Of a stretch of 6,567 nt of DNA, positions 5,305-6,056 are shown in pieces; the first letter of the stretch is position 1; each line of letters opens with the position of its first letter. The stretch lies in IMG/VR virus record IMGVR_UViG_2671180444_000011; one strand, 5' to 3'. The notes beneath the pieces are model-generated. The model was not told the DNA's origin. It was given only the letters and a program-made list of their open reading frames with translations, and ran no database searches. The position numbers were made by a program, and so were the translations under genes. This DNA comes from a virus (lineage: Duplodnaviria; Heunggongvirae; Uroviricota; Caudoviricetes).

Positions 5305-5802
5305 ATGAAATCATTAACCCTCTTCAATCAACCAATTCGTATCGGTGAAGATGGCATGATCTGCCTCACTGATATGTGGAAAGCCAGTGGTAAAAGTGAA
5401 TCTGAATCGCCTTACCACTACCTGCGAAACAAGCAGACCAAAGAGTTCTTAGCCGAGCTGGAGAAAAACCACGAATCTGTGGTTTTTACTGAGCGCGGTG
5501 TACACGGTGGAACATATGGCGGGAAGTTTGTTGCTTACGATTATGCGGCTTGGTTAAACCCCGGGTTCAAGTACGCGGCCTATAAAGTCCTCGATGACTA
5601 CTTCACCGGAGAACTTCAGCATCGCAACAGCTTAAGTGCGCAGCTCAACATGAAATGTCATGAATTTGACCAGAAGAAAGATATGGCGAGCTTCTGCGGA
5701 CAAGGGCTGGCAGCATGGCGCTATACGAAGCCAGTGTTGGTCGCTGAGATTAACTCCCTGGCTAACCAGCTGCAGATTACGATCCCCGGGCTTCCGGGAT
5801 GA
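5305..5802 (+). CDS. KilA-N domain-like phage protein (putative DNA-binding or regulatory, function unknown)
   Basis: 165-aa ORF; ICLTDMWKASGKSESESPYHYLRNKQTKEFLAELEK ... GGTYGGKFVAYDYAAWLNPGF resembles the KilA-N pattern (..LNDLhKAaG...P..wLR...TKEhIaEh ... GtWVH.dLA..FA.WLsPeF) as I recall it; not verified by HMM. Confidence 0.55.
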   Translation: MKSLTLFNQPIRIGEDGMICLTDMWKASGKSESESPYHYLRNKQTKEFLAELEKNHESVVFTERGVHGGTYGGKFVAYDYAAWLNPGFKYAAYKVLDDYFTGELQHRNSLSAQLNMKCHEFDQKKDMASFCGQGLAAWRYTKPVLVAEINSLANQLQITIPGLPG

Positions 5803-6056
5803 GTGATCATGTTATTGAATGCGCCTCCAGAGCGGGGCGCGACTTCTCAGAGTTCATGAAAGGCGAGAAGGGCATGATGGAAGCATTGGCCTCGGTGGAT
5901 GAGTTTGGCGAGCAGCTGCGCCTCAACGGCTGTGTCAATCATCACTTTGTTAGCTACATGATGCGGAACTCGATCATGCAGGCATTCATGGACATGGCAA
6001 AAGCCGAGAGGAAAGAAGAGCGCCGGCGTAAGCGAGCGGAAGCAAAAGCGAAGTAG
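5799..6056 (+). CDS. Hypothetical small protein (85 aa) with strongly basic C-terminal tail, translationally coupled to the upstream gene
   Basis: ATG overlaps the upstream TGA (ATGA at 5799-5802); C-terminus AKAERKEERRRKRAEAKAK; no recognisable family. Confidence 0.45.
   Translation: MSDHVIECASRAGRDFSEFMKGEKGMMEALASVDEFGEQLRLNGCVNHHFVSYMMRNSIMQAFMDMAKAERKEERRRKRAEAKAK

Follow-up and report, generated by a model that had tools for sequence, protein, structure and literature searches.

A KilA-N gene pair behind a conserved structured leader forms an exchangeable accessory module at the lysis–packaging junction of a lambdoid prophage remnant

The stretch of DNA analysed here, referred to throughout as the window, comprises 6,567 nucleotides (nt) of the IMG/VR virus record IMGVR_UViG_2671180444_000011 and is a DLP12-like lambdoid prophage remnant riddled with insertion sequence (IS) elements. 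Just after the region encoding a P21-type holin, lysozyme and Rz (3936–5103), and co-oriented with these late genes, lie two open reading frames (ORFs) which an earlier note, made from the sequence alone, had picked out as a self-contained cassette of a KilA-N-like protein and a small basic-tailed partner. Both are present exactly as described: ORF1 (5305–5802, ATG start, 165 residues) and ORF2 (5799–6056, ATG start, 85 residues) are joined by an ATGA overlap (...GGGATGAGT...). The cassette as a whole presents, in order, one or two intrinsic terminators (in the window at 5134–5158 and 5165–5189), a leader hairpin of about 100 nt within a conserved structured 5′ leader (5197–5304), a KilA-N+ORF11CD3 gene, the coupled 85-residue gene and a closing hairpin directly 3′ of the ORF2 stop codon (6058–6093), all on the + strand. 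The two genes are known phage genes of the Bro/KilA-N/Rha kind, uncharacterised, and the cassette is an exchangeable accessory module of the Bro/KilA-N/Rha network at the lysis–packaging junction of a lambdoid prophage. The less expected results are a leader fold supported by covariation and an ORF2 found exclusively with Bro-network genes.

ORF1 corresponds to hkbK of phage HK620 and to the protein WP_000839225.1, and is built of two domains. The KilA-N domain proposed earlier is borne out by PF04383 (57.6 bits against a cut-off of 23.8; residues 9–101) and is followed by an ORF11CD3 domain (PF10549, 50.5 bits against a cut-off of 25; residues 109–161), which the earlier note had left unnamed. 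The Rha-like family PHROG 518 matches the ORF11CD3 region (residues 105–163) and no match to Phage_pRha (PF09669) was found, so that what ORF1 has in common with Rha is limited to locus, leader and C-terminal domain. The AlphaFold2 model of ORF1, with a mean predicted local distance difference test score (pLDDT) of 84.5, shows an alpha/beta domain (residues 1–84) and a helical hairpin (H86–130/H132–156); a Foldseek search with this model gave no significant match, the DNA-binding APSES domain of Mbp1 being among the top hits at an E value of 0.79. Literature searches returned the term 'ORF11CD3' in lists only and nothing relevant for 'hkbK'. The hallmarks of the Bro network (Iyer, Koonin and Aravind, 2002; module list in PMC10111431) are all found here, namely an N-terminal DNA-binding module, interchangeable C-terminal modules and domain shuffling among relatives, with the slot, the leader or the ORF2 partner occurring with KilA-N+ORF11CD3, KilA-N+P63C, pRha+ANT, P22_AR_N+ORF11CD3 and T5orf172. 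Its domains place ORF1, as an uncharacterised member, in the Bro/KilA-N/Rha family, whose genes encode DNA-binding accessory proteins of phages.

ORF2 is the hkbL of HK620. It matches no Pfam or NCBIfam family, in agreement with the earlier description of a protein without recognisable family, and its match to PHROG 875 (1.3e-53) carries the annotation 'unknown function'; PDB sequences searched with a profile gave no match. A word-indexed search returned 137 clusters, whose sources are exclusively Enterobacterales or gut metagenomes, and a full hidden Markov model search of 1.84 billion representatives found 21, a distribution that points to a real, very narrow Enterobacterales family. Its ratio of non-synonymous to synonymous substitution (dN/dS) lies at 0.05–0.30 against seven homologues, two further comparisons being saturated at synonymous sites, which is indicative of strong purifying selection. 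The AlphaFold2 model (mean pLDDT 92.2; helices 3–20, 26–42 and 48–84) predicts an acidic three-helix bundle whose third helix runs into a basic tail of the RRRKR type with a net charge of +6 over residues 67–85, in line with the basic tail noticed earlier. In two distant relatives (P0132 and P0135) an ORF2-like domain, recognised with an hhalign probability of 96%, is fused to a T5orf172/MUG113 domain. T5orf172 is a classic module of the Bro network and, because of this fusion, ORF2 looks like a further member of the Bro shuffling set. The gene encoding P0132 (locus L100, 4001–4495) is separated by 229 nt from a downstream KilA-N+P63C gene and lies near an immI-like region with Arc, Arc and Bro-N genes. 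A zinc site in ORF2, suggested by the invariant C8 and C45 and the near-invariant H48 and H49 of alignment A1, was dropped since one or both cysteines are missing from the distant homologues P0122, P0132 and P0135. Matches to ORF2 on plasmids are on phage-like replicons, and a 4-kb contig labelled as a 'Candidatus Nanosynbacter' metagenome-assembled genome (JARKOR010000234.1) carries an E. coli-type cassette with an ORF2 identical at 100% of positions; this contig is probably a binning contaminant.

The association of the two genes was surveyed in loci gathered from IMG/VR by means of the leader DNA pattern, which is unrelated to either ORF; the scan gave at least 120 stretches, and the counts from it are here and below those among the matches listed. 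The two genes do co-occur: ORF2 lies behind 17 of 20 KilA-N–ORF11CD3 genes, and the ATGA overlap is kept in all 17 of these independent pairs. It also lies behind four of seven KilA-N–P63C genes, and behind none of 51 Rha (Rha174), 17 other KilA-N and nine HNH genes. Junctions of the ORF1–ORF2 type are always tight, either ATGA or TGA-nn-ATG, and no obvious Shine–Dalgarno sequence precedes ORF2. The gene directly 5′ of ORF2 varies, yet each is a Bro-network protein: KilA-N+ORF11CD3 in the window, HK620, the Shiga toxin (Stx) phage 1717, Klebsiella phage RAH1 and an Enterobacter asburiae prophage; KilA-N+P63C in mEp235, Klebsiella, Raoultella, Scandinavium and Trabulsiella and, by its like layout, HK022; pRha+ANT in an immI-like region of Rouxiella, beside Arc and Ant genes; and pRha in metagenomic contigs. 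At the same locus HK022 (p55), mEp235 (gp59–gp60) and HK97 (p61) have an ORF2 homologue, 83–94% identical, which is likewise coupled to a KilA-N protein, although the partner is a KilA-N+P63C protein of about 250 residues with a distantly related KilA-N domain and the junction is TGAnnATG instead of ATGA.

Such a coupled pair could be of the kil/anti-kil type, with an ORF1 that is toxic like KilA of phage P1 and an ORF2 that neutralises it. P1 KilA, which gave the family its name, is lethal when expressed, a harmful product would be in keeping with how tightly terminators and a structured leader insulate the cassette, and the overlap would couple translation of the two genes. The toxin/antitoxin-like character considered in the earlier note is nevertheless very unlikely. 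Genes of the ORF1 type commonly occur without ORF2, as in Erwinia phage phiEt88, Cronobacter, P22 rha and ES18, and at one locus (L233) ORF1 is intact and ORF2 is cut to 22 residues; near-identical ORF2 copies are swapped between unrelated partners; the putative toxin gene comes first in order and no autoregulated promoter was found. The obligate co-occurrence and co-evolution by which type II toxin–antitoxin pairs are recognised are thus not seen here. In loci of the phiEt88 type (L228, 1193–1366; L229, 3567–3684) a KilA-N+ORF11CD3 homologue is followed through an ATGA by an unrelated 57-residue ORF (MTKTEYNRIDASLEYL...KRGVTK), which may be an analogous small partner. A natural ORF1–ORF2 fusion (P0001) was rejected as evidence of interaction, being a frameshifted read-through, and among 22-residue matches annotated 'KilA-N' and considered as fusions the one record checked (CP100067) is a truncated ORF2 remnant.

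Of 5426 complete E. coli genomes, 1811 or about a third contain the 1.1-kb stretch (380 at ≥80% coverage), as do 210 phage records. Its genes are hkbK/hkbL of HK620, gp49/gp50 of Stx2 phage 1717 and the 'kilA' of phage 2851 with its neighbour, which share with the window 94–100% protein identity, the ATGA overlap, the position between Rz and the small terminase subunit, the leader and the closing hairpin. There is no substantive difference between these cassettes and that of the window, and since the genes are annotated there as 'unknown' or 'hypothetical' the correspondence provides a name without a function; it does not reduce the pair to well-characterised late-region proteins, an outcome that the earlier note had allowed for. 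Close copies of the pair always lie between Rz and the small terminase subunit, and other cassettes bearing ORF2 are found inside tail operons (Klebsiella and Enterobacter phages) and in the immI-like region of Rouxiella. Similarity to other phages starts at the Rz end and for many of them, including Stx phages, stops at about 6093, after the hairpin. Because these ends coincide with its boundaries, the stretch from terminator to hairpin behaves as one mosaic module, which upholds the view of an accessory module rather than a structural gene. The cassette is retained widely in inducible phages. A paper on lambdoid co-transfer leaves the pair unmentioned, and a paper on Hfq crosslinking and immunoprecipitation in enterohaemorrhagic E. 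coli gave nothing on the cassette locus under several locus-related terms.

More unusual than the gene pair is the conserved leader, which adjoins the region that the earlier note had considered. The 110 nt 5′ of ORF1 form a long hairpin (folding energy −48.7 kcal/mol, z = −3.5) whose consensus (5205–5290) is imperfect and consists of four stacked helices (28 bp) and a 2-bp apical helix, with a conserved internal loop on the 3′ side (GUGNGR), a basal helix that overlaps a purine-rich Shine–Dalgarno-like stretch, and a nearly constant spacing to the ATG. A covariance model of the leader (R1) was built from eight sequences and covariation was measured on 17 distinct sequences, which show compensatory changes in 24 of 30 pairs. 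In the alignment 90.9% of cells are paired, against 28–53% when the partners are slid by one to three columns, and none of 500 shuffles reached the observed values. The leader fold is real and supported by strong covariation, and its frequent G–U pairs together with much weaker minus-strand scores place the structure on the coding strand. Rfam 15 holds no family for 5184–5310, the matches being at chance level only (rimP leader, E 0.38; mir-193, E 4.4). A 55-residue ORF that overlaps the leader (5181–5348) is most likely spurious, because the region is kept as RNA structure and not as protein.

Copies of the leader are not confined to the gene pair. A leader 99% identical over 101 nt (5191–5291) precedes rha of P22, and copies 73–79% identical precede ES18 gp79 (Rha), a Rha-like gene of P13374 and HK620 hkbK. 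R1 matches stand before 17 divergent genes, among them the late-region ant of P13374, KilA-N+P63C genes of Klebsiella, Raoultella and Trabulsiella (with weaker matches in HK022 and mEp235), an Enterobacter KilA-N gene of the tail region and the HNH endonuclease genes of Klebsiella phage RothD and Scandinavium; no match was obtained with R1 at the ORF2 loci of Rouxiella and the metagenomic pRha contigs. Genes behind the leader among the matches listed from IMG/VR encode Phage_pRha, KilA-N, P22_AR_N+ORF11CD3, HNH_3+AP2 and T5orf172/GIY-YIG-like proteins, and about 100 of 119 leader-bearing loci have no ORF2 behind the downstream gene. The Stx phage P13374 carries two leader copies, one (718–847 in locus L105) before ant in the gap between lysozyme and Rz and one (2083–2208) before the Rha-like gene after Rz. 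In P22 (NC_002371; locus L103, 2246–2851) the annotated start of rha falls inside the leader hairpin, and the ATG that aligns with the starts of ORF1, ES18 gp79 and other cassettes lies 69 nt (23 codons) further 3′ in the same frame; the P22 rha annotation is probably too long.

The presence of an arginine-rich RRRKR-type helix in ORF2 and of a conserved hairpin with a conserved internal loop immediately upstream raises the idea that ORF2 is an RNA-binding autoregulator, binding the leader and feeding back on translation of the cassette. We consider this highly improbable, because the 99% identical leader serves P22 rha, where ORF2 is missing; the large majority of leader loci without ORF2 also speaks against it, as do the ORF2 genes of Rouxiella and the metagenomic pRha loci, which stand without a leader match. 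A second idea prompted by the range of downstream genes is that the terminator–leader unit marks free-standing genes of the homing type, with KilA-N/ORF2 as a non-nuclease passenger in a selfish mobile cassette of little benefit to the phage. The occurrence of the leader before HNH_3+AP2 endonucleases and a T5orf172/GIY-YIG-like gene besides Bro genes, and that of the cassette at several unrelated genome positions, are in keeping with this, and the free-standing endonuclease genes of T4 (mobE, I-TevI) offer a parallel in hairpins that sequester the ribosome-binding site. However, Pfam and NCBIfam searches found no nuclease domain in ORF1 or ORF2, ORF2 shows the strong purifying selection described above, and the cassette is widely retained in inducible phages. 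Mobility of this kind is unlikely as the explanation of the cassette, and it is compatible with, not exclusive of, a regulatory role.

The tandem terminators described earlier fold as expected, both with U-runs. Terminator 1, which follows Rz and marks the 5′ boundary of the cassette, has a 9-bp GC-rich stem (5134–5142/5146–5154) and terminator 2 a 6-bp stem (ATGCGT/ACGCAT, 5165–5170/5177–5182) followed by GTTTTTT; together they fold at −21.5 kcal/mol (z = −2.4). A consensus terminator scan flags terminator 2 only, and terminator 1 is annotated 'terminator' in HK544, Emek, phi80, HK106 and mEpX1. A terminator-like hairpin with a T-run lies within 130 nt 5′ of the leader in 83 of 91 distinct contexts, most of them with the stem sequence of terminator 1, and for this reason the upstream terminator is to be seen as part of the cassette and not just as the end of the lysis genes. 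On the downstream side the closing hairpin (core 6065–6086, stem 6065–6073/6078–6086) is stable (−17 kcal/mol, z = −3.0), but only UU follows it and, lacking a U-tract, it makes a poor intrinsic terminator on the + strand. A hairpin right after the stop codon is also found in HK620, Stx phage 1717, mEp235 and four further loci (L007, L008, L096 and L097), and some homologous cassettes, L097 among them, close with a canonical terminator.

The description of the cassette as self-contained did not hold with respect to its transcription. A consensus scan, which a weak or non-sigma-70 promoter would escape, found no sigma-70-like promoter on the + strand of 5104–5304, the ORFs are co-oriented with the late operon, and the annotated pR′/Q late operon of HK620 and of P22 includes this region. 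Q-modified polymerase reads through intrinsic terminators, so that the upstream terminators would block ordinary transcription only, and the cassette is most likely transcribed by Q-modified late transcription. Of the moron layout suggested in the earlier note, the exchangeable, hairpin-bounded insert stands: like lambdoid morons in the sense of Juhala and Hendrix, the cassette is an inserted unit between genes that are adjacent in other phages, whereas morons have a promoter of their own and none was found for the cassette, which has a terminator on its 5′ side and not just on its 3′ side.

These features bear in turn on the defence role that had also been raised. The cassette might serve prophage defence or superinfection exclusion in the manner of BstA, with ORF1 recognising invading phage DNA and ORF2 acting as effector or modulator. 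KilA-N is the N-terminal domain of BstA (PMC8585504), the position in prophages is an accessory one, and ORF1 matches the candidate PDC-S22 of PADLOC-DB 2.0 at 1.2e-8. The last match is weak and covers KilA-N residues only; PDC-S22 is the sole PADLOC model that ORF1 matches at E ≤ 1, and ORF2 matches QatB at 0.022, a chance level. BstA differs from ORF1 in being a single, lysogen-expressed gene of about 307 residues with an aba DNA element and a C-terminal domain unlike ORF11CD3. No promoter for expression in the lysogen was found for the cassette and two terminators stand in front of it, and other genes can take its place in the slot, Rha and Ant regulators among them. A defence module is therefore, in our judgement, quite unlikely.

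The cassette can be understood instead as a late-expressed, tightly gated DNA-binding regulator of the Bro type with a small cofactor, a reading to which we give an even chance. Only Q-modified late RNA polymerase would pass the terminators, so that the cassette would stay silent in a lysogen and its transcription would come late, following induction. The leader, with the ribosome-binding stretch held in its basal helix, would then limit or time translation; alternatively it could serve as an RNase III-type processing site. With the ATGA overlap and no obvious Shine–Dalgarno sequence of its own, ORF2 would be made by termination–reinitiation of ribosomes ending ORF1. From knowledge of these families and the structure model, ORF1 is predicted to bind DNA through KilA-N and to pair up through the ORF11CD3 helical hairpin, and ORF2, a small helical bundle with a basic helix, is envisaged as binding other proteins and serving those of the Bro type in general as a cofactor or modulator. 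The cassette is most likely a late regulator akin to antirepressors and Rha, not essential to the phage, that would strengthen or modulate lytic development or have co-resident prophages as its target. Elsewhere the slot and leader hold regulators (rha in P22, ES18 gp79 and the Rha-like gene of P13374), and loss of the late-region ant from the Stx phage Phi24B reduces the pR′ activity seen on induction (PMC3064807); this precedent and the Rha genes in the same slot lend support to a late regulatory role.

Comparison with these and other known systems brings out both the likeness and its limits. Rha of P22 (orf201), ES18 gp79 and P13374 share with the window the locus after Rz, the terminator-plus-leader unit and the late operon, and phi80, which matched the first terminator only, carries rha at the same locus; Rha proteins, however, have Phage_pRha as N-terminal domain where ORF1 has KilA-N, and Rha genes lack the ORF2 that follows ORF1. 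The phenotype reported for Rha is growth inhibition in IHF mutants (PMC4936722). In the isrK–orf45–anrP unit of Gifsy-1, the nearest analogue, and the c4–icd–ant unit of P1 a Bro-type gene likewise stands behind a structured RNA with AUGA coupling, and translation of Gifsy-1 anrP is gated by these elements (PMC4825925), although there the small ORF precedes the Bro gene, which in the window it follows. The Gifsy-1 RNA belongs to the Rfam families IsrK, C4 and c4-a1b1 and the window leader is a different RNA: R1 finds nothing in Gifsy-1, the antisense RNAs of the C4/IsrK type that control ant genes (RF01695, RF01394 and RF03163) have no match in the window at E ≤ 10, and the same Rfam search, as a positive control, finds IsrK, C4 and c4-a1b1 in Gifsy-1. 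An identity of the leader with IsrK/orf45 was therefore rejected, and the leader is a distinct motif with possibly an analogous job. We tentatively propose, at somewhat less than even chances, that the terminator and the leader together make up an undescribed cis-regulatory RNA, which would restrict to late times the expression of a class of interchangeable, potentially harmful cassettes comprising Bro-network regulators and HNH and T5orf172 endonucleases, and that ORF2 is a hitherto unrecognised Bro-network module acting as a generic cofactor of KilA-N and pRha proteins.

Several points weigh against a late Bro-type regulator with a small cofactor. The roles of the ORF1 and ORF2 proteins are ones we infer, and late-only transcription is read from the layout, with a promoter scan that would miss weak or non-sigma-70 promoters. 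Functional matches of ORF1 in fold and sequence searches are only marginal, and ORF1 has no match at E ≤ 1 to ANT, P22_AR_N or P22_AR_C, the domains of proven antirepressors; the same searches with ORF2 give generic helical bundles only and no functional match. Finally, KilA-N proteins sharing less than 30% identity are partnered by ORF2 copies that are about 94% identical, which speaks against a specific, co-adapted ORF1–ORF2 interface and favours an ORF2 that would be a generic cofactor rather than the co-adapted partner of one ORF1.

Genes of the Bro/KilA-N/Rha/Ant type are among the commonest accessory genes of temperate phages, Shiga-toxin phages included, and most are without known role. 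The handles gained here are a fixed cassette anatomy, a small gene specific to Bro-type genes and a covariation-supported leader common to genes of homing-type endonucleases. Should the leader determine when its genes are expressed, it would add a third control by RNA to those known for antirepressor-like genes, beside sar of P22 and the c4–IsrK of P1 and Gifsy, and it could bear on the induction kinetics of Stx prophages.

In the window itself IS elements flank and interrupt the prophage remnant (1–3720 and 6483–6567). The Q/pR′ region expected 5′ of the holin gene is missing, and because IS elements have taken the place of this upstream late-control region the copy of the cassette in the window is probably silent. 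Downstream of the cassette, a segment of about 300 nt (6087–6388) lies between two related hairpins (6065–6086 and 6363–6388), each followed by GATAATG, and is missing in Stx phage 1717, which has a single hairpin instead. It is without annotation in RefSeq relatives and contains a 23-codon ORF with a good Shine–Dalgarno sequence (6282–6353), longer weak ORFs and a weak match to Proteo-phage-1 (6144–6179, E 0.33). The upstream IS elements comprise IS3-family pieces with an ALIL frameshift pseudoknot at 1366–1482 (Rfam, 119 bits), IS1-like ORFs at about 2132–2635 and 3487–3690, and an IS21-like ATPase/transposase with a masked run of N at about 3020–3300; from about 6483 on, the window ends in what we take to be the left end of IS2.

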